A DNA stretch of 64,000 nucleotides, from contig CAZUNO010000002.1 of assembly GCA_964621445.1 (NCBI GenBank), positions 128,001-192,000 of the forward strand. The letters run 5' to 3'. Position 1 is the stretch's first letter; each line of letters starts with the position of its first letter. The notes beneath the pieces were generated by a model. The model worked only from the letters and a program-made list of their open reading frames with translations. It ran no database searches and was not told where the DNA came from. This DNA is from Candidatus Hadarchaeota archaeon (GTDB lineage: Archaea; CAYQAE01; CAYVLA01). Shown piece after piece: positions 13,841-49,265 of this stretch. The position numbers and the translations under genes are program-made.

Positions 13841-13970
13841 TATCCCCAGCTTAGGGAAAAGATTCTGAAAAATAGGGCACCATCGGGCGACAAATTTTCG
13901 GGACACTCACAAAAAAAACCCCTCGCCGGGACTCTCGGGAACATTTTCGAAGGTCCCCACCCCAGGTCCC

Positions 13971-26341: not shown

Positions 26342-27323
26342 TGCCCATTTCCCCAATTGAAACCGGTTCTCCATCCAGAGCCGACCTTCGGGTGGCCAGG
26401 GCCATTTCCACCGCCTTGCGACCGTCCTCACCGGTTATCGATGGGTTCCTGTTATTACGTATGCTTTCCACGAAATCCTTCAGCTCCTCCAGGACCCCAT
26501 CCTTTGAAGGTATTTGTTCTCCTTCCAATATCTTCTCCTCTCCACCCTCTTTCTTGTATATGATTCTCTTTTGGCTATTATCATAGAAAAGGGTACCTTC
26601 CCGGCAGAAAACTTCTCCTCTGTATCTACCCATTGTCGAGGATACCGCGGCATTTAAGGTCCCTATGGACCCGTTTTCAAACCTATATGAGGCGAAAATT
26701 GTATCCATAAAATCTACCCCATCGAGAACATACCTTCCACCCCTTGCAAATACCTCTTCAGGCTCGCCGAGGATGTGTCTCATGTAATCAAGTTCATGAA
26801 CGTTTACCTCTAGTAGGATGCCGCCGCAAAGGTCGCGCTTGCACCTCCACCCGCTGGTGAACTTCCAGCTTCCCACCCGCATGACGGCCATGGACATGGG
26901 ACTACCGATTTCATCCTTTACTATCCTTGCCGACTCCTTGAAAATGGGCAGAAGCCTTAGAACCTGACCGGTCATCAGGTTGACGCCGTTTGAATCGCAG
27001 GCATCTATCATTAGGTCGCAGTCCTCAAGGGTTAGTGCCAGGGGCTTCTCACAGAACACGTGAATCCCGGCATCAGCCGCTTTTACGACGTATTCACGAT
27101 GAAGATATCCGGGGGTGGATACGATAACCCCGTCGAGCCCGGGTGTTTGAAGGAGTTCCTTATAATTGGGACATGACTTTCCACCAAACTCCTCGGCAAT
27201 ACGGGTCGAAGAATCTGGATCGACGTCATAAGTTGCCACTAACTCTGCCCCATCAATTTTCACGAGTCTGCGCAGGAGACTATGACCATGCCCTCCGCAT
27301 CCCACTATACCTATTCCTATCAT
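26325..27323 (-). CDS. Gfo/Idh/MocA family oxidoreductase
   Basis: GIVGCG, HVFCEKP, GGILLEVNVHELD. Confidence 0.92.
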   Translation of the reverse strand: MIGIGIVGCGGHGHSLLRRLVKIDGAELVATYDVDPDSSTRIAEEFGGKSCPNYKELLQTPGLDGVIVSTPGYLHREYVVKAADAGIHVFCEKPLALTLEDCDLMIDACDSNGVNLMTGQVLRLLPIFKESARIVKDEIGSPMSMAVMRVGSWKFTSGWRCKRDLCGGILLEVNVHELDYMRHILGEPEEVFARGGRYVLDGVDFMDTIFASYRFENGSIGTLNAAVSSTMGRYRGEVFCREGTLFYDNSQKRIIYKKEGGEEKILEGEQIPSKDGVLEELKDFVESIRNNRNPSITGEDGRKAVEMALATRRSALDGEPVSIGEMGNETQG

Positions 27324-33042: not shown

Positions 33043-35346
33043 ATGGCATGGGGACAAATAATCTATTTCACACCTCTTATTTCATCTTCAGCAATCTCTG
33101 TTGGGCTGGCCCTTTATGCTTGGAGACGGCATTCCTCGATTGGGAAAAAGGAGTTCTCCTTGCTGATGTTGTCCGTGGCCTGGTGGGCCTTTTTCTACGC
33201 CTTGGAGATGCAATCTAGCTCGCTGGGAAACAAGCTGTTACTGGCCAAGATCCAGTACCTGGGAATCGCTTCCGTACCTTTGATGTGGTCACTCTTTTCC
33301 CTCAGGTATACCGGTCGCGGAACATACCTCACAAAACCCAAGATCGGCCTTTTAGCCATTATTCCATTAACCACCGTTTCACTGGCTTTAACCAACGACT
33401 ATCACGGGCTTCTATGGTCAAATGTCTACCTAGCACAGACAGGAAATCTTGCCTACCTGGCAAAGACCTATGGTTTCTGGTTCTGGATAAATGCAGGATA
33501 TTCCTATATTTTGATGATAATTGGGTCATTCCTCCTGCTTTACCATTCGAATAAGCTACCTGTGCTTTACCATGAGCAGGTCACCTGCCTTCTTATAGCC
33601 GCCTTTATGCCCATGATTGGTAATTTTCTTTACATTACTCGAATATCTCCAATGCCAAATATTGACTCCACCCCTTTCAGTTTCACCTTGGCAGGCCTGG
33701 CCCTGGCATGGGGCATATTCAGATATAGAATACTGGATATCGTTCCAGTTGCCAGGGACAAGGTCTTTGAAAAAACCAATGATTTGATCTATTTGCTCGA
33801 CCGTCAGCTACGGGTCGTAGACCTTAATCCGGCGGCAGAATCATTGCTGAATGAATCTAGAGGCGGGTTCATCGGGAAGAGGTTGAATCAGGTTATGGAT
33901 TTTCCAATTGATATGTCCGATCATATTGATGGAGAACACGGCTTCAAGGATCCTCTATGTATACAGATAGATGATCAGATGCGATTTTTTGATCTAACTG
34001 TATCCCGCTTAAAGGATAATCAGGGGCGATTCGTGGGTCTTATACTATTCCTGAAGGATATTACCGAACGCAAGATGGTCGAGAATAACCTCAGAAGAAC
34101 CACAAAAAAACTGGATGAAAACGTGCGCCAGAGGACCCTGGAACTGGTGCACACCAACAGGGCCATGAGACAGGAAAATGAAGAAAGGAAGAAGGCCCAG
34201 AGAAAGCTTAAGCTTTCGCAGGAAAAATTGAGAACCACCCTGGATGCCTCTCCCGACTCGATCATCGTTATCGACATAGATGGGAGGATAATTGACTGCA
34301 ATCCAGCAACAGCAGATATCTTTGAATATTCCTCCATTGAGGACGTGATAGGCAAGGAGGCTTTTTCCTTCGTATCAAAAGAGGACCTTGACAGGGTTCA
34401 ATTCGATCGTCGTACCTGCCTGAACTCCGGGTTTATTCGTAATCATCAATACAAACTGATCACTAGCCACGGAAGAGAATTCCCCGCGGAGGTCTCCGCA
34501 AGCGTGGTCAAGGATTCAACGGGGTCACCATCACTATACGTGGTAATGAGCAGGGACATATCGGAAAGGAAAAGGAATGAAAAGGAACTACGCCGATACT
34601 CGGAAAGACTTGAAGATCTGGTTCAGGAAAAGAGCGAGGAGCTTCGAGATGCTGAAAGGATGGCCGCCATAGGCCAAACCGCTAGCATGGTTGGTCACGA
34701 CCTAAGGAATCCCCTGCAGGCAATTTTAAATAACGTATATCTGGCCAGAAAACAATTGACGGGCGAAACGAATGGCGAATCCCTCAAGGGTCGACTAGAA
34801 ATTATACGAGACGAGATACTATACATGAACAAGATCGTATCCGACCTCCAGGACTTCGCCAAGCCACTGAAACCAGAACTCAGCCCAATAAATGTCAAAT
34901 CCTTAATTCAAAACATCTTGACTGGATTAAACCTGCCCAAAAAGGTAGATGTGTCTATAGACCTGAAGGATACACTTACCTTAGAGATGGATTCGATGAT
35001 GATGAAGAGGGTGTTAACAAATCTGGTAAATAATGCAATTCAGGCCATGCCTGACGGTGGGAAACTAAAGATTTCGGCCGATGGGGGAAATGGCATAGCC
35101 CATATCTCTGTCAGTGACACCGGCACTGGAATCTCCCCCGATGACAAGGAGAAGGTATTCAAGCCCCTTTTCACCACCAAGGCCAAGGGACAGGGATTTG
35201 GCCTTGCTGTCTGTGAACGATTTGTGACCGCTCACCAGGGGAGAATAACGATCGACACCGAACTAAGGGTTGGTACAACTTTCACAATTCATATACCAGC
35301 CCATCCGAATCATAAAACCCAGGAAGAATCACCAGTTGCGACCTAG
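33043..35346 (+). CDS. sensor histidine kinase: HisKA_7TM plus two PAS plus HisKA plus HATPase
   Basis: 7TM N-terminus, PAS ends DITERK/DISERK, HDLRNPL, NAIQAM, DTGTGI, FTTK..G.G.GL. Confidence 0.93.
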   Translation: MAWGQIIYFTPLISSSAISVGLALYAWRRHSSIGKKEFSLLMLSVAWWAFFYALEMQSSSLGNKLLLAKIQYLGIASVPLMWSLFSLRYTGRGTYLTKPKIGLLAIIPLTTVSLALTNDYHGLLWSNVYLAQTGNLAYLAKTYGFWFWINAGYSYILMIIGSFLLLYHSNKLPVLYHEQVTCLLIAAFMPMIGNFLYITRISPMPNIDSTPFSFTLAGLALAWGIFRYRILDIVPVARDKVFEKTNDLIYLLDRQLRVVDLNPAAESLLNESRGGFIGKRLNQVMDFPIDMSDHIDGEHGFKDPLCIQIDDQMRFFDLTVSRLKDNQGRFVGLILFLKDITERKMVENNLRRTTKKLDENVRQRTLELVHTNRAMRQENEERKKAQRKLKLSQEKLRTTLDASPDSIIVIDIDGRIIDCNPATADIFEYSSIEDVIGKEAFSFVSKEDLDRVQFDRRTCLNSGFIRNHQYKLITSHGREFPAEVSASVVKDSTGSPSLYVVMSRDISERKRNEKELRRYSERLEDLVQEKSEELRDAERMAAIGQTASMVGHDLRNPLQAILNNVYLARKQLTGETNGESLKGRLEIIRDEILYMNKIVSDLQDFAKPLKPELSPINVKSLIQNILTGLNLPKKVDVSIDLKDTLTLEMDSMMMKRVLTNLVNNAIQAMPDGGKLKISADGGNGIAHISVSDTGTGISPDDKEKVFKPLFTTKAKGQGFGLAVCERFVTAHQGRITIDTELRVGTTFTIHIPAHPNHKTQEESPVAT

Positions 35347-35358
35347 ATAAAGGTGAAT

Positions 35359-36519
35359 TTAACCTTTTTGTTTCAATTCTATATTCCTCTCAAGCAGAGA
35401 CCTCTGCCGTTTATCAAAGCACTCAAGGGAGAGGACTAACAGGAGGGTTGCTCCTTTAGATGAGGCCTTATCCGAGAGATCATATAGACACTTCATTGTA
35501 GGTTCAAACCCGTTATTTATGACCAAGTATTCCAAACCATCTAGGAGGATGGCCGCGCCCTCGGTTTTATCCAGGAAGGAAGAGATGACGCCTCCAACCA
35601 TCCCCACGTTCGCCGACCCTAGTGCTTCCTCGTTCAATTTTTCACGGGTGAGCCAGATAATCGGGGTCTGAGTTAGGGCGAAATTTCTTTTAACTGAATC
35701 CGGGGATCTGCGGGTTACGCACAGACCCGGGATATCAATGGACACCATATGTGATAAGGCTCTAAAGGCCTCTTTCTCCGATCTAAAGAGATAGGCCTCT
35801 CCTTTCTCCAGGAGACGTTCTCGATTCACAGAATTATCCCTTGCTCTTTCTTCTTTCCTAGGTTTAAGACTGAATAGCCTGTACTTTTCAGTAGTAATCG
35901 AGAACCCTATAACGAAAGCCATTGTTGCAAGGGCTGAGAACCCGTCAACCATTTCCGCGACTAGTGGTAAGAGTCTAGTTTCCAATAAGAAATTGTGGAC
36001 GATCTTTGAGCCAACTAAAATTAGCGAACAATAACCCATAATCAAAACGGGTACCTTAAGAACGGGGGTTGAATTTCGTATCTGGAGCCATATTATATAT
36101 CCCAATACGATGCCCGAGGCGATAAACCCCACTGCCATGATCCTTGGAACTAGCTTATTTCCTGCTGGTAATGCCAGAACTACGAAACTAAGAATGGCCA
36201 ATGGACTGAATACCGCAGCTGTTCCCTTTCTACATGAAAGGAAATCCACCTCTCTTGGATATTTACCCAGAACAAATGCCATAAGGGTAACAATGGCCAT
36301 TATGGCAAGATTATTGATAATAAGGGCTAGAGATCCCGAGCGAAATATCAAGAAAGAATCCAACACAATGAGCAGAGAAGATGCAAGAAGTAGAGTTGGG
36401 ATAATGACTACAATCCATTTCATATGGCTACTTAATTCCCTTCTAGAGATGGATACTCCAACTACTATTGATAGGATTGCCGTACTAATCCACAATGCAT
36501 CCACGGAGCTCAGCAACAA
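35359..36519 (-). CDS. multi-TM protein with C-terminal DUF835 (inactive KaiC-like) domain
   Basis: GLCVTRRSP, IIWLT, ILLDGLEYLVINNGF. Confidence 0.88.
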   Translation of the reverse strand: MLLSSVDALWISTAILSIVVGVSISRRELSSHMKWIVVIIPTLLLASSLLIVLDSFLIFRSGSLALIINNLAIMAIVTLMAFVLGKYPREVDFLSCRKGTAAVFSPLAILSFVVLALPAGNKLVPRIMAVGFIASGIVLGYIIWLQIRNSTPVLKVPVLIMGYCSLILVGSKIVHNFLLETRLLPLVAEMVDGFSALATMAFVIGFSITTEKYRLFSLKPRKEERARDNSVNRERLLEKGEAYLFRSEKEAFRALSHMVSIDIPGLCVTRRSPDSVKRNFALTQTPIIWLTREKLNEEALGSANVGMVGGVISSFLDKTEGAAILLDGLEYLVINNGFEPTMKCLYDLSDKASSKGATLLLVLSLECFDKRQRSLLERNIELKQKG

Positions 36520-36532
36520 ACCCGTTCCTACC

Positions 36533-37210
36533 TTACTCGTAAAGTACGCCTTTTACCTGCAATCCCTCATCCGTTATCTCCAGCAGCCGTTTTCTGAGAT
36601 CGTGTTTAGAGCCCCTTAGCTTCTTGATTTGGATATAGCGGTTAACGTCATTAACCGTCTCCTTGAAACCAAGTTCTACCACGCCATCCACAAGATACTC
36701 CAAAGATGTTGGATTTGAAGTCTCTGTGACTAGCACTAGTCGAGAACTAGTTTCAATTGCCAGGTCTAGAATCATCTCTATTGAACACGGTTCCCTCTCC
36801 CCCACGGTCTGAGCCACTGCATCCCAACTGTCTATCGAGATTATGGGCTCATCAATGTCCGTTATTATTGTGTCCAGAGCCTGAACGAAACCAGGCATGT
36901 TACCATAACGTAAATTCTTGAGAAGTCCACCATCCTTGGCTGGTCGACTGTTCACAGCATCTATGACCCCGCTTGGTGGCACCGACTTTTTGGCCCAGGG
37001 AAACATCTCATATAACCTGTCAGGGTCAACTCTGGTTGATACGTACAGACCATTGCCGTTTTCACAGATTTCTTTCAAAAATGTAAGAGTAAATACCGTC
37101 TTTCCCGACCCAGGCGCTCCCTTCACGCATAAGGAGTAACCGGGAAACCTGTTCACCGTGTCGGTTATCTCTTTTGGTAAAGACAAATCTTGACCTCCCT
37201 TGTACATCAA
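36533..37210 (-). CDS. single-domain KaiC/RAD55-family ATPase (GvpD P-loop-like)
   Basis: KGAPGSGKT, YVSTRV, IDSWD, LEYLVDGVV, KKLRG arginine finger. Confidence 0.85.
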   Translation of the reverse strand: MMYKGGQDLSLPKEITDTVNRFPGYSLCVKGAPGSGKTVFTLTFLKEICENGNGLYVSTRVDPDRLYEMFPWAKKSVPPSGVIDAVNSRPAKDGGLLKNLRYGNMPGFVQALDTIITDIDEPIISIDSWDAVAQTVGEREPCSIEMILDLAIETSSRLVLVTETSNPTSLEYLVDGVVELGFKETVNDVNRYIQIKKLRGSKHDLRKRLLEITDEGLQVKGVLYE

Positions 37211-37220
37211 CCAGCCACTC

Positions 37221-37261
37221 TATTTAAAAACAAATGCATTTGACTATTTGACTATTTGACC
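37221..37261 (-). promoter_or_regulatory. TATA box plus three tandem ATTTGAC(T/C) repeats upstream of the KaiC-like gene
   Basis: Minus-strand TTTTTAAATA at 37221-37230. ATTTGACT-ATTTGACT-ATTTGACC at 37238-37261. Confidence 0.45.
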
Positions 37262-37339
37262 TAAGTATCCTTAAAATGGAGCCCCTTTCCTTTGTCCCAT
37301 TATGGGAATTTCCCAATATAGTTGATTATTTTCTAAATT

Positions 37340-38046
37340 ATTTGGAAGTATCCAAGATCCTTCTCTCAAACACTGTGAACAGGCTCTGGGAACAGGTCTC
37401 ATGCAGTATCGGCGAACTGGACCTGCCCAGGGAGAAATGTGTCATGGTGGATGACACTGGGCCGGCTATCCGTGCCTGTTTAAAGGACAGCGCATCTGCC
37501 CATCAGCTCTACATCCTCCACATAGTCAGGGTTTTTCAAGCTCTGGAACAGGGAAATACCGGTCGAGACCAGGCTCTCGCTAGTCAAGGATCTGTCATCC
37601 ACCCTCTTCTCCTTGGTGGGGTCGGTGAAGAAACACCTCCTCTCACCCAACCTGGCAAGGATGAGGCGGAGGATCACCAGACCTTGGAGGCCCTGGGCAG
37701 CTATGTGGCAAGACTCAAGAAAGAGGGATCCGTCTCTGCAGCCAGCTTTGTTTCCAGGTCTGTCTAGGAAATGGTTGTCTTCACCAGGCTGGCCCTGGAA
37801 CACGTCAAGATCCTTTAAACCGTCAACCTGATGGAGAGGCTGATGGGCGAGGTGCCAAGAGAGTCAAGAACATGTTGGCACACTGGTCCCAGAGAGGACT
37901 AAAAAATCTGCTAACCCTACTCCTGGTCAGATACACCAACAAAAACCTGTATAAATCCGCATGTAAACACATCTACCACCAAACCGAAACCACAACCAAC
38001 ACGCTCAGATGCAAGACACAAAGATAGCCACTAACAGAACAGCACC
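37340..38046 (+). mobile_element. degraded ISH6-like (IS256/Mutator-related) transposase remnant
   Basis: Reconstructed 'CVMVDDTG..HQLYILHIVR..AASFVSRSV*EMVVFTRLAL..*TVNLMERLMGEV/AKRVKNMLAHWSQRGLKNLLTLLLVRYTN'. Stops at 37765 and 37816, frameshift near 37853. 5' part missing. Confidence 0.75.
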
Positions 38047-38281
38047 AATTATTTTCATATAATATGATGCCTAACTATGGGTATAGGTTCAATAACTCGA
38101 GTTTGAATAAGAATTCCTACCTTTATCCCCTTTCAATCACCCGACATCTTCATTCCACATAATAGGCCCCCCCAATTTATGGTATTGGTCAAGCCCTTTT
38201 CACTTATGGTCCAAATCCTGGTTATACGTGATCTTTTGATCCCACCGGGTTGTAATCCTTTACTTGATGACCTTACATACT

Positions 38282-38563
38282 CTATTCAACTTCGCCGAAG
38301 CGCCCTCTAGATATGTTCTTAAGCTCCCTGGACCTAAGCTCCGACACCATATAGTCCAATACTTTATCGGCGGAGGTACCTAATACTTCCTTCAGCTCCC
38401 GTTTGAAGACCTGTGGATTTTGTGGAATCTCTCCACCCATATATTCCAACGCTCGAGAGGCCAGCGAATCGCCCAGGATTTCCACTAGGCTATATTTAGC
38501 AAGACGACGGAATTCACGAGGAGAGACCAACTTCTTAGATACATCTGCAAATTCATCCTCCAT
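38282..38563 (-). CDS. small helical signalling-associated protein (DUF3227/NitrOD5-like)
   Basis: 'LVEILGDS...NPQVFKRELKEVLGTSADKV'. Downstream of the receiver gene. Confidence 0.55.
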   Translation of the reverse strand: MEDEFADVSKKLVSPREFRRLAKYSLVEILGDSLASRALEYMGGEIPQNPQVFKRELKEVLGTSADKVLDYMVSELRSRELKNISRGRFGEVE

Positions 38564-38629
38564 CTATCCACCCCCCCCCCGTAATTAGGGCATAGACGAT
38601 CGGAAATTGATAGGATCATCTTGTTATAT

Positions 38630-39082
38630 TCAAACCTCCTTTTCCTGTTCCAACTTCCTTATCCTTGCCTCAACCCATTGCGTAACCTTCTCCTCACTCA
38701 TGGATTCGGCTTCTTCCTGTTCAGCAAGCTTTTCCTTAACCGTCTCCAACAATACATCCGGTTTAACCGGTTTGGTCAAATATCCATCCGCTCCCTGGTT
38801 AACGGAATCGACAGCGTTCTCCAAACTGGCGTGACCAGTCACCATAACCTTCATCATCATGGGCCTTGACTCATGGAGCTTTCTAAGTAGTGTAGTCCCA
38901 TTCATTCCTGGGAGCTTTATATCTAGAAAAGCTAGATCATAGTAGTTCTGTTTTGATAAATCACACGCATTCTCCGCCGATTCAGCAAAATCGACCTGGT
39001 ATCCTTCCGACTTCAAGATACTCTCAAAGCTCTCTAGTATCGCCTTGTCGTCATCCACGATCAGAATTTTCTTCTCAACCAT
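38630..39082 (-). CDS. stand-alone response regulator (receiver plus short helical tail)
   Basis: ILIVDDD, LDIKLPGMNG, VTGH, YLTKP. Confidence 0.93.
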   Translation of the reverse strand: MVEKKILIVDDDKAILESFESILKSEGYQVDFAESAENACDLSKQNYYDLAFLDIKLPGMNGTTLLRKLHESRPMMMKVMVTGHASLENAVDSVNQGADGYLTKPVKPDVLLETVKEKLAEQEEAESMSEEKVTQWVEARIRKLEQEKEV

Positions 39083-39278
39083 TTTGAAATCCCCTTTCAC
39101 TTACGGCAAGTACCAAAAACCCTCTGCTCTGTGACCACATAACATCATTAAGTTTTGATGATCTAGGTTCATATAGTTACTACATTTCTAAAAAGGGCCC
39201 AATATCGTTAAAAATACTTCCCAATCTATCGTGAATATATTGAGACTTTTCCAATAATATGATAAAAAGTATTGCTTT

Positions 39279-40631
39279 TCAGAGATCCTTTGGTAATTCT
39301 CGAGTTTCTCGCTCCAGAAAGGCCAACTGCCTTTCTTTGAAACAGTTTCGCGGAACTACCAGCAGAAGCCTGGACTCGTTCTGAACCACATTATCTCTGA
39401 TGTCATAAAGAGAGTTCATTGTCCTCTCGAAGCCATTGTTCAGTACCAGGTATTCGAGGCCATCAAGAAATACAATTCCCCTGGAAGTCTCATCGAGAAA
39501 TGATTTAGTTAAATCACTAACTATACCCACATTAGAAGACCCTAAGGCCTCATCCATTCCATCTTCGTTTGATAACCACACGTAACGAACGTTATCAGCA
39601 TCTAATTCATTTCTTATACCATCCGGGTTTCTTCTGGTGATGCATAGACCAGGAACTCCACTCTTGACCAGTTCTCCGAATATTTTCAGCATCCTTTCGT
39701 CTTCATTGAATGAATATATACCTTCTTCCTTTAACCCCATGTACTTGCCATCAACCCTACGGCTTCCTATTTCGATCTCTTTGAAGGATTTCAGGATACC
39801 GCTCTTGAGAACATACAAACCTAGACTAATGGTAACAAGAAGAGCGGCCAAGCCTGAAAGAAAGTAAATCAAATCTCCGTATCTACTGCTACCAAACTGA
39901 TTCAATGAGTAATTTAGTGGATGTAACCCGATCAGTAGTGATGCAGAAGCGCCTATCAATACCAAAGAAATTCTCCGCTCTCCGGAAAGTTCTTTTACCC
40001 GACGATTTACCAAAATAGGGACGACCACCACGAATATCCCAGAACCAATTATGAACAGAGCCCCTGGTCGCTGCAGGAGAGATCCCGCCTGAAACCTCCC
40101 CAATCCCTCCAAGATAATTCCAATAGCTCCAATAATTAATGGTAGGTAAACAATTAGATGGCTTTCCACGCCAAGGGGTCTTGCCACTCCTCTGCCAATA
40201 ATCATCAGAAACCAGCTCAGTAACCCGGCCATGGCAAGAATAACTAAATCAGTAAACACTGGACTAAAATAGATAGCAAATTCAGGTACTAGATTCAGAA
40301 AAGAATAGATGAAGAGAAGCAGGAGCACACCCAAACAGGGCACGAATGGTTTTTTGCGCAGTATCTTCCTAGCAATAGTGGATCCCGCAACAGCACCCAG
40401 CACACCATTTAGTTCCTCCTTGATCCCTTCCGGGTCATCGAATAGTCCCTTCCTCTCCAAATGGCCCGCTAATGCTCCTCCCGGTCCTGGACCCAGAAAA
40501 TTTCTCAGTCTTTCAATTAATTCACTCCGTCTTGAATTACGATACTGGTACCACTTGACAAATAGCCATGCTGAAAATCCGAATGATGATAAGGAAACCA
40601 TAACCCAAATTATTTCAGATATTACATTCAA
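39279..40631 (-). CDS. multi-TM DUF835 protein with inserted small helical domain
   Basis: GLCITRRNP, VWLS, VFLDGLEYLVLNNGF. Soluble insert after TM1. Confidence 0.85.
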   Translation of the reverse strand: MNVISEIIWVMVSLSSFGFSAWLFVKWYQYRNSRRSELIERLRNFLGPGPGGALAGHLERKGLFDDPEGIKEELNGVLGAVAGSTIARKILRKKPFVPCLGVLLLLFIYSFLNLVPEFAIYFSPVFTDLVILAMAGLLSWFLMIIGRGVARPLGVESHLIVYLPLIIGAIGIILEGLGRFQAGSLLQRPGALFIIGSGIFVVVVPILVNRRVKELSGERRISLVLIGASASLLIGLHPLNYSLNQFGSSRYGDLIYFLSGLAALLVTISLGLYVLKSGILKSFKEIEIGSRRVDGKYMGLKEEGIYSFNEDERMLKIFGELVKSGVPGLCITRRNPDGIRNELDADNVRYVWLSNEDGMDEALGSSNVGIVSDLTKSFLDETSRGIVFLDGLEYLVLNNGFERTMNSLYDIRDNVVQNESRLLLVVPRNCFKERQLAFLERETRELPKDL

Positions 40632-41064: not shown

Positions 41065-42315
41065 TTGATTAACTCAATTAATATCACCGGTAAATTGAAT
41101 CAGTACCTGGATATCCTAGCCAGGATTTGCTTATTTCTCGTATGGATAGCACTGATGTCACCCGCTGTGAACTGTTTTGATGATTCTAACAGAGCAAAGG
41201 TCCTTTACATTGGTGACACCGGCTTTGAAACCTGGCGGGATATCGCCGGAGACCCCCTCTTGATCACCACAGCGGTCCCAGCAAGTGTGGGTCATTTTCC
41301 AAGTGATCAAATTGAAAGGTACATGAGGCAATACATTCCCAGGACTTACACAAGGTACTCATCTGATGTGGACCTGCTCATACTGAGTGATACAGACCGC
41401 CAGCTTTTCACCACGAAGCAACAAACCTGGTTCAAGAAGGGCGTTTTTGAGGAAGGCCAAGGATTAATCATGGCTGGAGGGCTTGAGGCCTTCGGAGGAG
41501 CCGGGTGGGGGAGTTCCTGGGAGGGTTCCTCAGTTGCTGATGTACTCCCCGTGAATCTTTTGACCGGTGAGGTATGGAATCTGCATCCATTCCATGCCAG
41601 ACCAACCGAGGAATCGTCAAATCATCCCCTAATCACCTCCCTCCCCTGGAACACTATGCCCACTTTTGGCGGTATGAATAGGGTAACCACCAAGACATGG
41701 GCGGAGGTGCTTCTGAAGGCAGCTGGACCTGGAATTAGCTCCTCCGAGAATCTACCGGTTCTAGTCCATGGGGAAGTGGGGGAGGGTTCATCTCTGGCCC
41801 ATACACCTGACTGGAACCCTGGTTGGGGAGGCAGGGTTATGAGGGAATGGGAGTATTACCCAGATTATCTGATTAATATGGCATATCTGATGGTCGGTGT
41901 TTCCATACCGCAGAATCTGCAGTTATCACACCTGGTGAGAACCGAGTTGGCAAACCATATTCAGCGGATGAGCGTCACCCTGTCCTTTCTCGAGTTCGCC
42001 GAGGATTTTGGCGCCAACATACACCCCCTGGAAATGCGTCTATCAAAGGCAGCCCAAATGAAGGATGAGGCCGATGCTTTGTATATCGATCAGGATCTTG
42101 AGGCTGTTCTGGAAAAGATGAGGCAGGTCCGGGATCTGATGGATGATATAAACCAGCAGGCCATAGAACTCAAGGACAGGGCCCTTGTCTGGGTCTACGC
42201 CGTGGAGTGGCTGGCGGTCACCGGAACCTTCCTTGTGTGTGGGTTCATTCTGTGGACTTTGATGGTCCGTAAGAGATTCTATAAAAGAGTGGAGATGACC
42301 AAATTACAGGGTTAA
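41065..42315 (+). CDS. uncharacterised surface-protein family, paralog 2
   Basis: RYMRQYIPRTY, GLIMAGGLEAFGG..W..SSVADVLPV (DUF1355-like), FAEDFGAN, ALVWVYAVEW. Confidence 0.85.
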   Translation: MINSINITGKLNQYLDILARICLFLVWIALMSPAVNCFDDSNRAKVLYIGDTGFETWRDIAGDPLLITTAVPASVGHFPSDQIERYMRQYIPRTYTRYSSDVDLLILSDTDRQLFTTKQQTWFKKGVFEEGQGLIMAGGLEAFGGAGWGSSWEGSSVADVLPVNLLTGEVWNLHPFHARPTEESSNHPLITSLPWNTMPTFGGMNRVTTKTWAEVLLKAAGPGISSSENLPVLVHGEVGEGSSLAHTPDWNPGWGGRVMREWEYYPDYLINMAYLMVGVSIPQNLQLSHLVRTELANHIQRMSVTLSFLEFAEDFGANIHPLEMRLSKAAQMKDEADALYIDQDLEAVLEKMRQVRDLMDDINQQAIELKDRALVWVYAVEWLAVTGTFLVCGFILWTLMVRKRFYKRVEMTKLQG

Positions 42316-42371
42316 ACTAGCTTGTGTGAAAAGGTTTCCAATATAATATCCAATGACACGAAACAAGGACC

Positions 42372-43703
42372 TTAATCATCCCCAATCATGTGAGTGGTTT
42401 TGACAGCATGGTATAATTTGCGGCGGATCATAACCGACCACAGAAAAACCCCCGCGATCATGGCCGTCCCGCTTATCACCAGCCACTCAATGAGATACAC
42501 CCAAAAGAGGGCGCGTTGTTTGACTTCCATAGCTTTTACCTCTAGCTCGTCAAGCTTTTGGTGAACCTGGTCATATATCTCCAGTGCCTGTTCAAAATTC
42601 AATTCAATATATGCGGGCATTGCACTCTGGGATAAATCCTCGACCTCATCCAGATCCTTGACCAGGTGAAGTGTATTTGCGCCGAAGGAATCACAGAATT
42701 CGATTAGGCTCACGATTAACGACTTCCTATTCATTACATCGAACATGCTCTCCCTCAGGCGATGCGCGAGTTCGACATCCTGGGGTACCGGTCGACGATC
42801 CATGTAGATCATGAGATTTGCTCCAAAATCCAGGGCATATTCCCAGGGATCAGCTCTCGTGCACATGCTGTGGGACTGACCGGGCTCTGAGCTGGGGCCT
42901 ATTATCTCCCCGCTCACGGCAAAGGTACGAGCGCCGCCGTCTAGTTCCCAGGTAACCATTGCCGGATGCTGGGAAAAGGAAACGCTCTCAATATAGGCCA
43001 GCATTTGAGCCCCCGCCCTGAGCTTGACCAAGTTGTGGTGAAAATTACTCATGAAAGGCTGTTTTCGGTCCCAGGGAAGGCTACTCATGAAATCATTCTC
43101 TGGCTCATTGATCTTCATGAAGAGGCGGTACTTCGGTTTCATGATGTAGGTATTCTCTACACACTCCACCGGGAGTATGTCCCCCACGGCTGTACCGCCC
43201 CATGAAGGACGGCCAAATGCACCCCCAAAACTTTCCCAACCCCCGAACATCACCAAACCCAACCCACCCCTTCTGGGCCCCCGCGCCAGCATCTCTATGT
43301 ACTTATCACCCAAAGCCAAAGTATTGGCATTGGCCAGCACGATAACGTCAAAACGGGTATTAAGATCCTGGTAGGTGCGAGGCATATATAGACGGATGAA
43401 TCGGTAGACATCGGTCTCGGCGTCCGCCCTCATTGCCGGTGCCGGACCAAATCCAGCCCAGTCCCTGAGCGTAGCCTGCACGAAGCTCATACGGAACAAG
43501 GGATCTGATCTCATCCACCAAAAGGGGGCAGAACGAGCCAGACACCCGATGTATATTACCCCAATCCTTTCATCATTGGATGGGGCTGCCATGGCCATAG
43601 GTCCCAAGGCAAGGAGGGCTACCAAGATAATGAACCCAACATACATTCCCCGGATTGGATGGACCAGGCGGCTTTCCGACCCTTTTCCCCTATCTTGAAT
43701 CAA
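42372..43703 (-). CDS. uncharacterised surface-protein family, paralog 3
   Basis: RFIRLYMPRTY, GLVMFGGWESFGG, FCDSFGAN, ALFWVYLIEW. Confidence 0.85.
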   Translation of the reverse strand: MIQDRGKGSESRLVHPIRGMYVGFIILVALLALGPMAMAAPSNDERIGVIYIGCLARSAPFWWMRSDPLFRMSFVQATLRDWAGFGPAPAMRADAETDVYRFIRLYMPRTYQDLNTRFDVIVLANANTLALGDKYIEMLARGPRRGGLGLVMFGGWESFGGAFGRPSWGGTAVGDILPVECVENTYIMKPKYRLFMKINEPENDFMSSLPWDRKQPFMSNFHHNLVKLRAGAQMLAYIESVSFSQHPAMVTWELDGGARTFAVSGEIIGPSSEPGQSHSMCTRADPWEYALDFGANLMIYMDRRPVPQDVELAHRLRESMFDVMNRKSLIVSLIEFCDSFGANTLHLVKDLDEVEDLSQSAMPAYIELNFEQALEIYDQVHQKLDELEVKAMEVKQRALFWVYLIEWLVISGTAMIAGVFLWSVMIRRKLYHAVKTTHMIGDD

Positions 43704-43834
43704 ATCTGATCCCCATTTACATTAACGGAATATTTCTCTAATGGAAAACTCGGGGATAGCGTATATATTTTGCGCGTAACATCTATCAAAGCGTCGGGTT
43801 ATCGGAAAGCAGCAACTCACGAAAAATGGCCAGT

Positions 43835-45106
43835 CTATGATTTGAAGCTTGTAGTTTTCACTTCTTTATAGGCCGACCTTCTCACCATCAGCGTCCAGAG
43901 TACCGCGCCGCTTAACATGCTGGTCCCAGAAACGGTAAACCACTCAATTACGTAAACCCAGAAAAGTGCCTCATCCTTGGCCTCCATGGCCTGGGTCGAT
44001 GCCTTGTCAAGGCTTTCCAGCCCGTTCTCCACGGCGGCCAGTGCTTCCTCGTACTCTCCGTTAACGTAAAATCGGATTACCTTTTTCCTACTTTCTTCAG
44101 ACTCCATCAGGGTATTCGATGCCTTCTGGGTGTTTGCACCGAACTTCTCTGCGAAATCGATAACTGAAATCGCATACCTCCTCACGGAGAAAAACCTTGT
44201 CAGACTGGTTCGAAGTTCCATTACCAGGGACATGTCCTGGGGTATTTCAACTCTGGCTATCCAGTAAATCATATTGCTAACTATAATGGGAGCGAAATCG
44301 GATCTATGGAAATCCTCTGGACCGTTCCCTCCCCAGTCATGTACAAAGGCCTCGCTCATACCCTCACCCATTTCGCTATAAACCAGCACCGGACTGTTTG
44401 CAGGATACCTGTCGGTTTTCCCGACCACCACAGAGCCCTGCCTCGCGGTCACCCTGTTTCGGCAGAACAGTGGGATGGTGTTCCAGGGAATGTTCTTCAC
44501 CAGCGGATGGTCCTTATGCTCCTCGGGAACCACAAGATGGTACTTCTTGTCCAGAGTCCAGAAATCCCTGTGACAATCAACCGGGAGTATCTCTCCAATG
44601 GTGGTGCCCTGCCAGCTGGGATGATTTAGAGAACCTCCAAAGGACTGGGGACCACCTGCCATCAGGAAGCCAAGGCCGTATTCCAGAACACCCTTATTTA
44701 CCCACCGCTGGATTTTCTCCGGGAAAAACGGTTCTCTGGCATCCGTTATTATCACCACATCGTATCCTTCGGTAACTTGCCTTTCCACCCGGGGGAAGTA
44801 AACCCTTAGTGTCCTGGCCGCCACGCTTATGGTCTGATATTCCCCGGTAAGAAACTCCACCGGGACCGGATTCAAATCTATCATGGGGTCTTCGGCCATT
44901 AATGGGGTGACAAAGCCGGCCTCCATAAGTGCATCGCCCATGAACAGGACACGGATCATGCCCGTCTCCGGGTCGACCTTTGGCTCGACGCTCAAAGCTA
45001 TGTTGAGAGCCAGAAGCATGACGAGGTAGGCCAACATGATCTTCATGATAGAGGTCAGGTAAGATGCTTCCCAAAATCTGGGTAGATTGATCCTATCATC
45101 GTTCAA
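43835..45106 (-). CDS. uncharacterised surface-protein family, paralog 4
   Basis: RTLRVYFPR, GFLMAGGPQSFGG, FAEKFGAN, ALFWVYVIEW. Confidence 0.85.
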   Translation of the reverse strand: MNDDRINLPRFWEASYLTSIMKIMLAYLVMLLALNIALSVEPKVDPETGMIRVLFMGDALMEAGFVTPLMAEDPMIDLNPVPVEFLTGEYQTISVAARTLRVYFPRVERQVTEGYDVVIITDAREPFFPEKIQRWVNKGVLEYGLGFLMAGGPQSFGGSLNHPSWQGTTIGEILPVDCHRDFWTLDKKYHLVVPEEHKDHPLVKNIPWNTIPLFCRNRVTARQGSVVVGKTDRYPANSPVLVYSEMGEGMSEAFVHDWGGNGPEDFHRSDFAPIIVSNMIYWIARVEIPQDMSLVMELRTSLTRFFSVRRYAISVIDFAEKFGANTQKASNTLMESEESRKKVIRFYVNGEYEEALAAVENGLESLDKASTQAMEAKDEALFWVYVIEWFTVSGTSMLSGAVLWTLMVRRSAYKEVKTTSFKS

Positions 45107-45213: not shown

Positions 45214-45750
45214 TCAGATATATGATAGATCCTTTAGTTTCCCCATTATTGCCCTTGCACTATCCTCCGGGGTCTGCTTCTCCGTATCCACTACGATCTC
45301 TGGGTTTTCCGGTTCCTGGTACGGATCTTGAATTCCGGTCATGTCCTTGATCTCCCCCTTAAGTGCCTTTTCGTACAACCCCTTGGGGTCTCTCTGAATG
45401 CAGGTGTCAATTGTAGCCTTGGCAAAAACCTCTACGAAATTGCCGAGCTCCTCCCGGGCATAGCGCCTTATCTCCCGGTAAGGAGATATGAGACAAACTA
45501 TGACCGCGGCGCCGTGCTTTACCAAGAGTTTACTCATGTGTATGACTCTCTTGTTATGTAGAGAACGGTCCTCCTTGGAGAAACCTAGATCCGGGGAAAG
45601 CTTTTCCCTCACCCAATCCCCGTCAAAGACCTCAACTGCCAAATCCTCTCCCTCCAGCATCGGCGCCAGTTCATTGGCTATTGTCGTCTTTCCGGACCCC
45701 GGGAGCCCGGTGATCCAGATCACGAATCCTCTTCCATTACTCTCCTTCAT
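45214..45750 (-). CDS. cysC: adenylylsulfate (APS) kinase
   Basis: WITGLPGSGKTT, DGDWVR, LGFSKEDR, RDPKGLY, TGIQDPYQEP. Confidence 0.95.
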   Translation of the reverse strand: MKESNGRGFVIWITGLPGSGKTTIANELAPMLEGEDLAVEVFDGDWVREKLSPDLGFSKEDRSLHNKRVIHMSKLLVKHGAAVIVCLISPYREIRRYAREELGNFVEVFAKATIDTCIQRDPKGLYEKALKGEIKDMTGIQDPYQEPENPEIVVDTEKQTPEDSARAIMGKLKDLSYI

Positions 45751-47111
45751 AGAATCTTACCTCTAATATCTGCAGGCACTGGAAGTCCAAGGCATTCTAG
45801 AACAGTTGGGGCCACATCAAGGATGTTGGCTGGTCGCCATTCGGGTTGGTGATGATCGTCTGATAGTATGTATACTCCTTCCTTGGCGTGAACCGCATCG
45901 TCCGGCCCGGTGTCATTTCTGCTCAGGTAAAAATCCGGATGGCCGACCGTTCCCGCCGATCGCCAGGCCAGTTCGTCGAGGTATACCATCATGTCTGGCG
46001 GATCCCCCCTACATGGATTGAAATAACGTTCGGGGTAGATTACCTCGGTGTTCCAGCTCTCCCCATTTGGACCGTTTATGTCCCTGATCTCCCCGGCCAA
46101 TTGATCCCTGACTTCCTGGTACTTGTCCGGGTGTACCGTGCCTATTTCCTCCCTTCCTTTCACATTCAGGAATATCCTGGCGTAGTACCCTCCCCAACCC
46201 CAGGCCCTAGTCTTGCTCCAGTCTATCTCGGCTTTAGAGAAACGTCTAACCTCCTTCGGCTGCTTCATCGACAGGTATCCACTGGAGGCCAACCACTGGT
46301 TAATGCAAAAGGCCCCCTTCATGGCCTGGGCACCATGATCCGATACTATCAATATGGATGTGTCATCTGGCAGTAATCTCTTGAGTCTACCAACCCAGTC
46401 ATCGAGTAACGAGTAATACTCGGGGATCGCTTCCTGAAAGGGATTTCCCTCCTCGTACAGGTGGTGGGCGGGATCGAAAAATTTCCAAAATGCGTGATGA
46501 ATTCGGTCAAGTCCTATCTCCACAAAGGTGAAGAGATCCCAGTCCTTTTCCTTCATGAGATGCTCTATCAGCCTGAACCTCTTCTCAGTCATGTCATGGA
46601 GGCCCTTCAACAGGGTCTTCCGATCATCCACCCTAAATTCCACATCGGTGACGTAATCCCCCACCAGATTTCTGATCTCCCGGGCCAGTTCCGGGGGATA
46701 GGTGTAACGTTTGGAGGTATCGGGGGTTATGAACCCGGAGACCAGCCAACCTTCCATGGGTCTAGGTGGATAGGTCGGTGGAACACCGACCACGCAGCTC
46801 TTGCCACCCGCTCTCCCAATACGATCCCAAAGTGTAGGTTGCTTGATGGATGCGGACGAAGCGATCCACATGTTTTGATAGGAGTTATTCTTCCGGTGCC
46901 TAAAACCGTAAAGACCGAGCTGTCCAGGGTCCTTTCCGGTCATCATGGACATCCAGGCCGGTATGGTTATGGGAGGATCAGAACTCCTAAGGGGCCCCCT
47001 TACTCCATCCTCCGCCATTTCTGTGATATTGGGAATTCGTTCCTTCAGCTCGTCGAAAACCAGGTCGGGAGCTGCACAATCCAAGCCCATAATTACGAAC
47101 TTGTCCTTCAC
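45747..47111 (-). CDS. AlkP-superfamily type I phosphodiesterase/nucleotide pyrophosphatase-like protein (COG3379-like)
   Basis: GLDCA, PPITIPAWMSMMTGKDPG, DRIHHAFW, VSDHG, DVAPT. Confidence 0.85.
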   Translation of the reverse strand: MKDKFVIMGLDCAAPDLVFDELKERIPNITEMAEDGVRGPLRSSDPPITIPAWMSMMTGKDPGQLGLYGFRHRKNNSYQNMWIASSASIKQPTLWDRIGRAGGKSCVVGVPPTYPPRPMEGWLVSGFITPDTSKRYTYPPELAREIRNLVGDYVTDVEFRVDDRKTLLKGLHDMTEKRFRLIEHLMKEKDWDLFTFVEIGLDRIHHAFWKFFDPAHHLYEEGNPFQEAIPEYYSLLDDWVGRLKRLLPDDTSILIVSDHGAQAMKGAFCINQWLASSGYLSMKQPKEVRRFSKAEIDWSKTRAWGWGGYYARIFLNVKGREEIGTVHPDKYQEVRDQLAGEIRDINGPNGESWNTEVIYPERYFNPCRGDPPDMMVYLDELAWRSAGTVGHPDFYLSRNDTGPDDAVHAKEGVYILSDDHHQPEWRPANILDVAPTVLECLGLPVPADIRGKIL

Positions 47112-48130
47112 TGCGACCTCTCCTCCACGTATTGAATAGCAACATCCGTCATTTTTTCGACTTCTCCCTTGGGAAGTACCATGCCTACAACCTCGGGCTT
47201 GCCACCTGCCGAATATCCTTTAAGACGAGCGGTTTTGATCAGGGGTATGAGATTAGGCGTATTTCCCGTCCTCCGCACATAGAGTCTTGCATTTTCATGG
47301 CCCATGTTCCGGACAATGACCGCTATTTTTCGCCCCTTTTCCTGCAGGGCCTTTTTTCTGGCAATGATTGATGTTAGATGCATCTCGGTATCTATCGTCT
47401 TGACCACGACTTGATTTCTATTCTCAACATCGGAACCGAGAATTCTATCTATTTCCGCACCCACTGCCTTCTTGTTTTCAACCCAGGAGTCTATGCGTAA
47501 GAGTTCTCTGGGATGTGAGAGGTTCTCGAGCAGTATTGATGGAGCCAACTCAACCGTTCTTTTTTCGTTCGCCATGTAGTTGGAATCGATCAGGTTAGTA
47601 ACTTTGAATAGTTCCTGTATATCCAGGTCGTTCGAAAGCGTAATCTTCTCGACCCTTTTTTTCAATGGGTGGTTCAACAAGCGTTTCCCAAGATCTCCGC
47701 ACATACCAATGGCCGCTAATAGGTCAACTCGATCCACAAGCCAGGAGAGAAAAAGGGCATTTGACTCCGGAGGAGAACCCGGGAAATTATCGGGGTGTAG
47801 AAACTTCACACCGCCAATCCCGCTTGGTGGATTGGAGTGGTGATCAATCCACACTAGCTGTGAGTCCAGTTGGTTATTCATCTCCCTCAGCTTTTCCCCC
47901 GATACTGCAAGATCCAGGCCTAAAACCAAGTCGGGATTTTTATCATCTATTCTCTTGAGCTCGTCTTCAAAATCGGTATAGTTCCCGATGGGAGGCGTTT
48001 GGTTGACGCAAACAGAACCCTCCATGGACATGATCATCGTCGCCGAAGCAATGCCATCCGCGTCCCAGTGGTGAAGGATTCCAATGGAATAGGAGCTTTC
48101 AAGTATATGGAAGAGATCTTCACTGGACAA
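47108..48130 (-). CDS. DHH-family phosphoesterase (candidate PAP phosphatase)
   Basis: HHWDADG, WIDHH, AGGK. Located within the sat-cysC operon. Confidence 0.8.
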   Translation of the reverse strand: MSSEDLFHILESSYSIGILHHWDADGIASATMIMSMEGSVCVNQTPPIGNYTDFEDELKRIDDKNPDLVLGLDLAVSGEKLREMNNQLDSQLVWIDHHSNPPSGIGGVKFLHPDNFPGSPPESNALFLSWLVDRVDLLAAIGMCGDLGKRLLNHPLKKRVEKITLSNDLDIQELFKVTNLIDSNYMANEKRTVELAPSILLENLSHPRELLRIDSWVENKKAVGAEIDRILGSDVENRNQVVVKTIDTEMHLTSIIARKKALQEKGRKIAVIVRNMGHENARLYVRRTGNTPNLIPLIKTARLKGYSAGGKPEVVGMVLPKGEVEKMTDVAIQYVEERSQ

Positions 48131-49265
48131 AGGGATTCTCCCATTTCAATACTATATCCGCTATCTCGGGTCGCATTATCTCCGGAGGGGGCCTTTCATT
48201 TCGATCCAGCATTTCCCGGATCCTGGTACCGCTGAAGTTGATGTGATCCTCCGGAGGGTGGGGGCAGGTCTTTTCATTTGCCACCCCTCTGCATCTCCTG
48301 CAGTGGAAAAATGACTTGAAGAATAATGGAGAAATTCCCAAGTCCGGGAACTCCTCAAAGATCTCCTGAGCTGCAAAGGGGGGGTAATAATTTCCAACCC
48401 CAGCGTGGTCCCTGCCCACGATAAAATGTGTGCATCCGTGGTTCTTCCTCATAATTGCGTGCAGTATGGCCTCCCGGGGACCGGCATACCTCATCTCAAA
48501 CTGGAGTATGACCAGGACAGCTCTTTCCTTCAGATAATAATTCTCCATGAGGGCCTGGTAGGCCTCGATTATCAAGTCATCCTTGAAATCCCCTGACTTC
48601 TTCCTCCCTATTACGGGGTTTATCATCACCCCATCAGTAAAGCTTAGTGCCGTTTTTTGTAGGTACTCATGTCCCAGATGGGGCACGTTTCTGGTCTGGA
48701 AACCGACAACGGTGCGCCAACCCTTTTCCCTGAATAGTATCCTGGTTTCAAGAGGCATCAGGTGCAGATTAGGGTATGAGCTGGGAGGTGGGTCCACTAG
48801 GGATATGTCCCCTCCAATTAGAAAATCTCCGCGGGAAAAGGTCTTGGCAACTCCCGGATGTCTCGAGTCCTTGGTTCCAAATACCGCCTGAGCATGACGC
48901 TTCTTATCCAGGGGGAAAATCTCCTCAACATCCATTACCGCTATCAAATCTCCCTGGTTAGTCAAAGCCACGCGGTCCTGTTCATCAAGTTCTCTGGCCC
49001 TGCTTTCTTCCACATCGAGAATTATGGGGATGGTCCACGGAACATCATTTGAGAGCCTCATATGATCGAGGATATTCTCGTAATCCCGGGAACCCACAAA
49101 GCCGGTAAGAGGTGAAAATACACCCCTGGCGATATTCTGGCAATCCATGGCCAGCTCGTCATTGATGACTATGCTGGGAAGCTCCCGGGATTCCTCCTCC
49201 AGACGATCTCTTTCTCTCCCCCTAGCTACCCTGTTGGTTAGAGACCCTCCATGGGGACGGATCAT
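48120..49265 (-). CDS. sat: sulfate adenylyltransferase
   Basis: PHGG, FSPLTGF, FQTRNVPHLGHE, MRYAGPREA, HFIVGRDHAG, SGTRIR. Confidence 0.96.
   Translation of the reverse strand: MIRPHGGSLTNRVARGRERDRLEEESRELPSIVINDELAMDCQNIARGVFSPLTGFVGSRDYENILDHMRLSNDVPWTIPIILDVEESRARELDEQDRVALTNQGDLIAVMDVEEIFPLDKKRHAQAVFGTKDSRHPGVAKTFSRGDFLIGGDISLVDPPPSSYPNLHLMPLETRILFREKGWRTVVGFQTRNVPHLGHEYLQKTALSFTDGVMINPVIGRKKSGDFKDDLIIEAYQALMENYYLKERAVLVILQFEMRYAGPREAILHAIMRKNHGCTHFIVGRDHAGVGNYYPPFAAQEIFEEFPDLGISPLFFKSFFHCRRCRGVANEKTCPHPPEDHINFSGTRIREMLDRNERPPPEIMRPEIADIVLKWENPFVQ

Follow-up and report, generated by a model that had tools for sequence, protein, structure and literature searches.

The Locus and Its Five Paralogs

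Five genes for predicted membrane-anchored surface proteins of one family are encoded in a 64,000-nucleotide stretch of a Candidatus Hadarchaeota genome (assembly GCA_964621445.1, contig CAZUNO010000002.1, positions 128,001 to 192,000), hereafter called the window, and three of them lie side by side at window positions 41065..45106. The family had been pointed out in a sequence-only reading of the window, and all five open reading frames (ORFs) named there were recovered with the same coordinates and could be aligned over their full length. Paralog 2 (P0002, 41065..42315, forward strand) comprises 416 amino acids (aa) counted from the first TTG; its true start is uncertain, and its database record begins at M31. 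The other four, paralog 1 (P0001, 27423..28748, 441 aa), paralog 3 (P0003, 42372..43703, 443 aa), paralog 4 (P0004, 43835..45106, 423 aa), and paralog 5 (P0005, 57238..58479, 413 aa), are encoded on the reverse strand, and all four are free of N-glycosylation sequons. P0001 is the most divergent copy, with its nearest paralog at 32.8% identity; it aligns with P0002 to P0005 at 23–28% identity, the full-length alignment of the five retaining 34 invariant columns. The nearest paralog of P0003 (76.7% identity) is found on a different contig, and P0004 and P0005, proposed earlier to form a subfamily, are indeed mutual nearest paralogs at 39.7% identity.

The only Pfam domain matched in these proteins is PF07090 (GATase1_like, formerly DUF1355), whose gathering score of 27 bits is reached by four of the five, namely P0002 (61.6 bits), P0004 (45.3 bits, E 1.1e-11), P0005 (30.1 bits, E 4.5e-7), and P0003 (29.8 bits, E 5.8e-7). 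None of the five has an NCBIfam match at E ≤ 0.01. The glutamine amidotransferase (GATase)-like core of paralog 1 had been described as degenerate, and rightly so: P0001 has no Pfam match at E ≤ 1, yet its AlphaFold2 (AF2) model (pLDDT 79.9, pTM 0.76) places the structural elements in the order common to the family and returns the PF07090 structures 2gk3 (E 8.7e-9), 3rht, and 3soz as best Foldseek matches.

Copy Number and Age

Counting five paralogs greatly understates the scale of the family. A profile built from the five window proteins gives 152 matches in their own 3.21-Mb genome, a draft with an estimated contamination of 4.2%, and a six-frame ORF scan at E ≤ 1e-5 yields 160 family ORFs, of which 116 are full-length (at least 380 aa) and 44 are shorter. 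The full-length copies occupy 146,652 bp, or 4.6% of the genome, across 42 contigs; the short ORFs are mostly head-only or anchor-only pieces, placed side by side or at contig ends, and may be pseudogenes or assembly breaks. Single-linkage clustering of a crude ORF-based gene set makes this the largest paralog cluster of the genome with 142 genes, the runner-up being the sulfatases with 44. As the largest gene family, filling this share of the genome, it therefore appears central to how the cells meet their environment.

Median identity is 52% to the nearest paralog, with a maximum of 77%, and 27% when all pairs are considered. For 50 of the 116 copies the nearest relative is one of 136 external proteins compared rather than a paralog in the same genome. 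Thirty copies lie within 500 bp of another copy and the remainder are dispersed. Judged from these identities, the copies are old and anciently diverged. ORFs of at least 455 aa in the genome owe their extra length to upstream read-through and contain no extra domains. A motif search of 114 family promoters against 2830 others produced nothing that survives correction (best 6-mer p = 4.7e-5 among 4096; no 7- or 8-mer passes).

Architecture and Topology

The five window proteins are built alike: a signal-like N-terminus leads into a PF07090 head, followed by an antiparallel three-helix bundle, a single C-terminal transmembrane (TM) helix, and a basic tail of 16 aa. This order is best seen in P0002, whose AF2 model, computed from 65 sequences, reaches a pLDDT of 92.4 and a pTM of 0.84 and consists of an N-terminal hydrophobic helix, an alpha/beta head (residues ~40–284), and helices 285–314, 320–341, and 345–401, the last of which runs on into the membrane. 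On the forward strand, the N-terminal region (41065..41181, aa 1–39) is a hydrophobic signal peptide or signal anchor, with residues 17–35 marked by hydropathy and a helix at 10–35 in the model. It is followed by the GATase1-like alpha/beta head (41182..41916, aa 40–284), containing the RxxRxYxPR motif (85–93), the elbow loop (138–155), and a Trp-rich loop (247–264), and then by the bundle (41917..42180, aa 285–372; FGAN at 315–318), the juxtamembrane segment and TM helix (42181..42264, aa 373–400), and the cytoplasmic tail (42265..42312, aa 401–416).

Domain limits in the other paralogs, mapped via the alignment, are closely similar. The N-terminus, head, bundle, TM segment, and tail span aa 1–43, 44–309, 310–397, 398–425, and 426–441 in P0001 and aa 1–42, 43–309, 310–397, 398–425, and 426–443 in P0003; the corresponding limits are 1–46, 47–291, 292–379, 380–407, and 408–423 in P0004, and 1–35, 36–281, 282–369, 370–397, and 398–413 in P0005.

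Two of the three motifs put forward for the window proteins hold across the 116 full-length copies. RxxRxYxPR is family-wide (R85 in 79, R88 in 111, Y90 in 114, P92 in all, and R93 in 114 of 116), as is FxxxFGAN (F311 89%, F315 90%, G316 96%), while 'MxGGxxSFGG' is present in only ~40–60% of copies (G138 in 46, G139 in 45, and S142 in 71 of 116). The helical stalk said to begin with FxxxFGAN is likewise real in its motif and different in its form, being a compact antiparallel three-helix bundle (~284–372 in P0002) rather than a long coiled coil, with FGAN in the turn that joins its first and second helices.

An N-terminal hydrophobic segment is detected by hydropathy in 105 of 116 copies and a C-terminal TM segment in 109. 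The N-termini have a charged n-region in 108 of 116 copies, positive in sign, followed by an uncharged run with a median of 17 aa, often with small residues at its end, and an Arg cluster stands directly after the C-terminal TM segment. These features back the suggestion of a membrane-anchored surface protein and predict a type-I topology with the head outside the cell.

The claim that heads have diverged strongly around a conserved anchor is borne out by the mean frequency of the commonest residue over the 116 copies, which is 0.63 in the TM segment, 0.66 in the tail, 0.41 in the bundle, and 0.18–0.37 in regions of the head. The TM region is near-invariant at W376, E381, W382, G393, W397, and M400 (P0002 numbering) and carries the polar or small residues E381, T386, G387, T388, and G393. 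The tail follows the consensus RRRLYREVxxTRL and has a median length of 16 aa (range 13–29, counted from the basic cluster); among the 102 tails parsed by pattern, 14 of the 116 being left out, Tyr is kept in 93 and Thr in 96, with Ser in the other 6. This C-terminal module appears to belong to the family alone. Hidden Markov models (HMMs) of bundle plus TM and of TM plus tail match, within the genome, only family members or their fragments, and hhalign comparison with the C-terminal ends of two further families that combine a signal peptide with a C-terminal TM segment gave probabilities of 15% and 10%; neither the genome HMMs nor the best 150 of 453 database representatives that match the module attach it to another head type. 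A role as archaeosortase or exosortase substrate was rejected, as the proteins show no PGF, PEF, or PEP signature and the tail, with its median of 16 aa, has a conserved motif of its own. A homodimer prediction for residues 40–372 scored 0.00 and weighs neither for nor against oligomerisation.

Fold of the Head and Loss of Catalytic Residues

The head is homologous by sequence to three structural-genomics proteins, 3rht, 2gk3, and 3soz (E 5e-25 to 1e-21), and its fold is that of these solved PF07090 members. Neither Cys nor His is the commonest residue of any head column at a frequency of at least 60% over the 116 copies, and at positions 131–150 Cys is absent among the three commonest residues. 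Because conserved Cys and His are lacking and the elbow region is variable, with its Gly at 138 and 139 kept in fewer than half of the copies, the head is not a glutamine amidotransferase, in line with the earlier description of a non-catalytic GATase-like domain. A catalytic class I enzyme is ruled out by the missing Cys-His-Glu triad and the elbow that is not kept; moreover, the five proteins contain no fused or partner synthase domain, PF07090 being their sole Pfam domain, and the head is predicted to be extracellular. The alternative label of a solute-binding protein, in the sense of ATP-binding cassette (ABC) transporters, does not fit either, since the head is a single flavodoxin-like domain and not a Venus flytrap, with PF07090 as the sole Pfam match. 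A full-text literature search with the names PF07090, DUF1355, and GATase1_like gave no functional study, only the Pfam database paper.

A Candidate Paralog-Specific Site

Tryptophan makes up 3.27% of the head against a genome background of 1.45%, rising to 7.7% in the elbow loop 138–155 and 9.0% in loop 247–264. Conservation, taken as the mean frequency of the commonest residue per region, was compared between a P0002 orthologue group (n = 18, at least 49% identity), a P0004 group (45 orthologue-like proteins at 50–69% identity), and the 116 paralogs. The respective values are 0.85, 0.80, and 0.32 for the elbow loop, 0.82, 0.85, and 0.25 for loop 247–264, and 0.79, 0.86, and 0.29 for the loop after strand 3, as against 0.74, 0.72, and 0.37 for the strands and 0.65, 0.65, and 0.41 for the bundle. 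Thus, the three loops are the best-conserved regions inside both orthologue groups and among the most variable between paralogs. Their position is the C-terminal edge of the beta-sheet, where true amidotransferases have their active site. Such a pattern is expected of a specificity-determining site and argues, at the level of sequence, against heads that are merely drifting; the idea of a diversified receptor repertoire is to this extent supported, as regards a functional site specific to each paralog.

Purge of N-Glycosylation Sequons

The mature parts of the 116 copies contain 20 N-x-S/T sequons where 151.8 are expected (500 shuffles: mean 151.8, SD 12.0, minimum 122; z = −11), and 96 copies have none. 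Thirteen of the 20 share one turn position. The deficit extends over the ectodomain, with 18 sequons against 116.3 expected in the head and 1 against 36.9 in the bundle, and control motifs stay near expectation (reversed [ST]xN, 135 vs. 151.8; QxS/T, 129 vs. 144.5). The same purge is found in 136 external homologues, which have 20 sequons against 137.7 expected and are sequon-free in 117 cases.

Elsewhere in the genome, the ratio of observed to expected sequons is 0.89 in 1287 proteins with no TM segment, 1.76 in the 103 whose only hydrophobic segment is N-terminal, and 2.42 in 80 others that combine a signal peptide with a C-terminal TM segment. This suggests that the envelope of this archaeon is heavily N-glycosylated. 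Two STT3/AglB genes are encoded in the genome. The family ratio of 0.13 is telling because a neutral protein not exposed to the machinery would sit near 0.9; it therefore points to exposure to glycosylation and to selection against modification nearly anywhere on the ectodomain. The reason may be that the cell's own glycans are kept off a binding surface.

Three further small families of surface proteins (7, 5, and 7 members; examples are G000:C50:233-2053, G000:C6:31228-32262, and G000:C25:20296-21222) adjoin the large one and have no Pfam or NCBIfam match. In two of them, most members combine a hydrophobic N-terminus with a C-terminal TM segment; the third has an N-terminal segment only. One sequence examined from each of two small families carries many sequons, unlike the large family.

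Distribution

The GTDB phylum of this genome consists of five species genomes. Three sisters of the same family contain at least 113, 147, and 152 matches, counted with the best 150 candidates scored, of up to 242; in the fifth genome, from another family, two head-type matches were found, both weak, and the C-terminal module and sulfatases are missing. Thirty-six other archaeal genomes gave no match at E ≤ 1e-5. The C-terminal module of 130 aa is matched at E ≤ 0.001 by 453 of 1.84 billion cluster representatives. Nearly all of the best 150 are shorter fragments or proteins of ~380–470 aa in which the module stops within a few residues of the C-terminus; among these 150, no protein exceeds 468 aa. 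Database names of the relatives are 'uncharacterized membrane protein' or 'hypothetical protein', some labelled Theionarchaea archaeon; most have a precomputed PF07090 match, and the atlas neighbours of the family are all archaeal.

No RNA dataset is listed for 41065..45106. Three DNA runs from one microbial mat metagenome study contain this segment and may be the source sample rather than independent support. Two runs labelled hypersaline lake cover small shares of the stretch (0.09 and 0.06) and are uninformative.

Genomic Neighbourhood

Within the window the paralogs have sugar and sulfur genes as neighbours. P0004 and P0003 lie downstream of genes for an ATP-sulfurylase, a DHH phosphoesterase, an alkaline-phosphatase-superfamily protein, and an adenosine 5′-phosphosulfate (APS) kinase. 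This four-gene group (45214..49265, reverse strand), in which the second and third products match DHH/DHHA1 and Phosphodiest, respectively, is encoded on the same strand directly upstream of paralogs 4 and 3 and is a sulfate-activation cluster, or one making 3′-phosphoadenosine 5′-phosphosulfate (PAPS). P0001 adjoins genes for a GFO/IDH/MocA oxidoreductase, a URO-D-like protein, and a DegT aminotransferase, and P0005 adjoins an aldo-keto reductase and an epimerase.

Genome-wide, 47 sulfatase (PF00884) matches were found, for instance at G000:C10:35037-36533, compared with 17–36 in the three sister genomes and none in the fifth genome of the phylum. The sulfatases begin directly with the catalytic domain, which has a Cys-type CxPxR signature around residue 50–60, and only 1 of 41 has a signal peptide; because of this direct start and the missing signal peptides, nearly all are taken to be cytoplasmic. 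Literature searches found no work joining Theionarchaea with sulfatases, a dedicated Theionarchaea genomics paper being outside the search. Neighbour enrichment was computed within three genes of a full-length family member, on the crude ORF-based gene set, for 11 families. Sulfatases (14 of 41 vs. 6.9 expected, p = 0.005) and URO-D-like genes (9 of 19 vs. 3.2 expected, p = 0.002) are overrepresented, and GFO/IDH/MocA genes are not (5 of 30 vs. 5.1 expected). The URO-D-like family has 19 members, one of them in the window at 25271..26431 (reverse strand). Canonical sugar importers are scarce in the genome, with six BPD_transp_1 matches, one weak SBP_bac_1 match, and no SBP_bac_8 match. The 489 neighbour genes include a mixed cluster of five ABC-type proteins; of two representatives scanned, both have ABC_tran and one has ABC_membrane.

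Other genes in the window are worth recording. A 696-aa protein with GHL6 and Glyco_hydro_42M domains (52007..54097, forward strand) is a putative glycosidase with another GATase1-like accessory domain. A 1419-aa alpha-2-macroglobulin (6329..10588, reverse strand) has MG, bait-region, TED, and receptor-binding domains between an N-terminal hydrophobic segment and a C-terminal TM helix; to our knowledge, such a protein is unusual in an archaeon. A sensory cluster at 33043..40631 encodes a HisKA_7TM-PAS histidine kinase, two DUF835 proteins, a KaiC/GvpD-like ATPase, and a response regulator. Finally, a C-terminus made of [IVL][PS]E, a TM segment, and basic residues occurs in 19 other proteins of the genome, one of them encoded in the window at 12863..13906 (reverse strand), against 3 for a scrambled control motif; it is possibly an IPE/VPE-type C-terminal sorting signal, and the genome has two exosortase/archaeosortase-family (PF09721) genes.

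Interpretation

It is tentatively proposed that the family constitutes a large repertoire of surface-tethered, non-catalytic binders, most plausibly of carbohydrate, which a common anchor and tail couple to a partner. Each protein would be exported by a Sec-type route and become a type-I membrane protein, with a non-catalytic GATase1-like head of ~245 aa held on a short bundle and the basic 16-aa tail left in the cytoplasm, so that more than 100 anciently diverged surface receptors would make up one repertoire. The Trp-rich loops at the sheet edge may form the ligand site, fixed within an orthologue group and different between paralogs. The likeliest ligands would be carbohydrates in the form of exopolysaccharide fragments, which after uptake could be processed by the many cytoplasmic sulfatases and sugar-modifying enzymes, and the sequon purge would keep the whole ectodomain clear of the cell's own glycans. 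From the near-invariant TM segment and tail, we infer that all paralogs may be coupled to one common partner, membrane or cytoplasmic.

Several observations weigh against this proposal. Ligand binding, like carbohydrate as the ligand, is something that we infer, and no partner for the TM segment and tail was found. The candidate loops are acidic (in the elbow loop, D+E 9.3% vs. R+K 4.0%) and the net charge of the head averages −7.5; because of this acidity and negative charge, direct binding of polyanionic sulfated glycans is not favoured. That the loops form one site is read from the order of secondary-structure elements and not from three-dimensional distances, and the similarity to Agd3, taken up below, is at the level of fold only. 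As for the neighbourhood, the enrichment is only about twofold, was obtained on a crude gene set, and becomes marginal after correction for 11 families; most copies have no adjacent carbohydrate gene, and ~150 copies per genome make proximity to anything common. Across genomes, the joint presence of the family and sulfatases amounts to one evolutionary contrast (four genomes against one).

A more specific version, a type of receptor system undescribed in archaea in which more than 100 glycan-free, ligand-specific receptors share the TM segment and Tyr/Thr tail and through them deliver exopolysaccharide fragments to one common machinery for uptake or sorting, is considered unlikely as it stands. 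If true, this handover system would replace the canonical binding-protein-dependent sugar importers, which are nearly missing in this sulfatase-rich archaeon.

The proteins might instead be surface-tethered enzymes of an unrecognised class, such as exopolysaccharide depolymerases or esterases whose substrate differs by paralog and which supply the extracellular breakdown for the cytoplasmic sulfatases. With the sulfatases inside the cell, polymers must indeed be cut outside, and GATase1-like domains are found in many carbohydrate-active enzymes; within orthologue groups, conservation peaks in the loops of the canonical active-site edge, as it would in an active site, and some polar positions are fairly conserved (E196 in 80, D267 and D284 in 97 each, and H289 in 87 of 116, besides S142). 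However, no pocket-edge residue is kept family-wide, and S142 is Ala in P0002. The fold is a non-catalytic accessory domain in the matches to glycoside hydrolase family 42 (GH42), fucosidase, and phosphorylase, and the solved close relatives have no assigned activity, which together make such enzymes improbable.

About as improbable is a structural or adhesive role, either as a protein coat or as lectin-like anchors that hold heavily glycosylated envelope proteins or neighbour cells to the membrane, in the manner of SlaB-type stalk proteins. The succession of signal peptide, globular head, helical stalk, and C-terminal TM segment resembles surface-layer (S-layer) anchor proteins, and the family fills 4.6% of the genome. 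The purge itself could be read in this way, since the other surface proteins are sequon-rich and probably glycosylated, and a lectin for the cell's own glycans must stay glycan-free. S-layer proteins are, however, usually glycosylated themselves, no lattice or oligomer evidence was obtained, and such a role would leave unexplained why more than 100 paralogs diverged long ago, are each conserved, and differ in their loops.

The conserved anchor could also mark interchangeable accessory subunits of one machine, GldG-like beside an ABC-2 transporter or OST48/Wbp1-like beside AglB, with heads that select cargo or substrate and a TM segment and tail that dock. Conservation highest in the TM segment and tail and polar or small residues within the membrane would agree with docking, and proteins beside AglB would presumably face special pressure to lose sequons. 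Yet the PDB sequence search shows no relation to OST48/Wbp1 and the Pfam search of the five proteins no PF09822 (ABC_transp_aux), both at E ≤ 1; the fold scores are matched by many unrelated GATase1-like domains, no transporter or AglB gene was seen to recur among the neighbours, and no precedent is known for 116 alternative subunits of one machine, which leaves this role very unlikely. Signalling receptors, with a single TM helix that relays ligand binding from outside to a cytoplasmic reader of the Tyr/Thr tail, for example by phosphorylation or an adaptor, have in their favour the near-invariant tail residues and the two-component and KaiC/DUF835 genes of the window, but a 16-aa tail with no output domain, no kinase or adaptor gene recurring beside family members, and no shared upstream motif suggesting a regulon make them equally hard to credit.

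For the proposed binder repertoire, the loops fixed in orthologues and variable between paralogs, the near-invariant anchor and tail, and the near-complete sequon purge offer experimental handles. If the heads bind glycans, the family would stand as the archaeal equivalent of polysaccharide-capture systems in bacteria, and PF07090 would gain a first function; should they not bind them, the purge itself is an unexplained selective signature worth following.

Comparison with Known Systems

The PF07090 domain family is already known; what is new is the anchored architecture, the more than 100-fold expansion in one small archaeal lineage, the loop pattern, and the sequon purge. The literature searched contains no description of any of these, the dedicated Theionarchaea genomics paper being outside that search. 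The solved PF07090 proteins, 3rht from Planctomyces limnophilus and 2gk3 (STM3548) and 3soz (STM1381) from Salmonella, are named 'putative glutamine amidotransferase' and comprise ~250 aa. The Salmonella proteins are deposited as cytoplasmic, none of the three reaches the bundle, TM, and tail part of the profile, and all lack RxxRxYxPR, 2gk3 having VQIAFPES in its place. The function of these close relatives is also unassigned, and STM3548 adjoins genes for a PfkB kinase, a DMT transporter, and a phosphotriesterase (PMC13432705).

The sole experimentally characterised non-catalytic relative found is the N-terminal CBM87 domain of Agd3 from Aspergillus fumigatus (PDB 6nwz), which shares the GATase1-like alpha/beta/alpha fold, lacks the triad, and binds exopolysaccharide. 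It has 8% identity to the head and is a module of a fungal deacetylase rather than a free-standing anchored protein. The cleft residues of CBM87 in Agd3 are D242, W292, and W344, and the Trp enrichment of the head in the corresponding loops is only suggestive. GldG (ABC_transp_aux), OST48/Wbp1, and IFT52 likewise have GIFT/GATase1-like domains as outer domains of membrane proteins; they show no detectable sequence relation to the family and are single-copy subunits of defined machines, whereas the present family has more than 100 copies.

The closest working analogy, and no more than an analogy, is with the SusD/E/F-like surface glycan-binding proteins (SGBPs) of the polysaccharide-utilisation loci of Bacteroidota, which likewise come in large repertoires, are non-catalytic and tethered to the cell surface, and have genes close to those of enzymes acting on the same substrate. 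Their fold is unrelated, and they are held by a lipid where the archaeal proteins are held by a TM helix. An archaeon has no TonB-dependent partner, and linkage to enzyme genes is weak here, at about twofold for the sulfatases.

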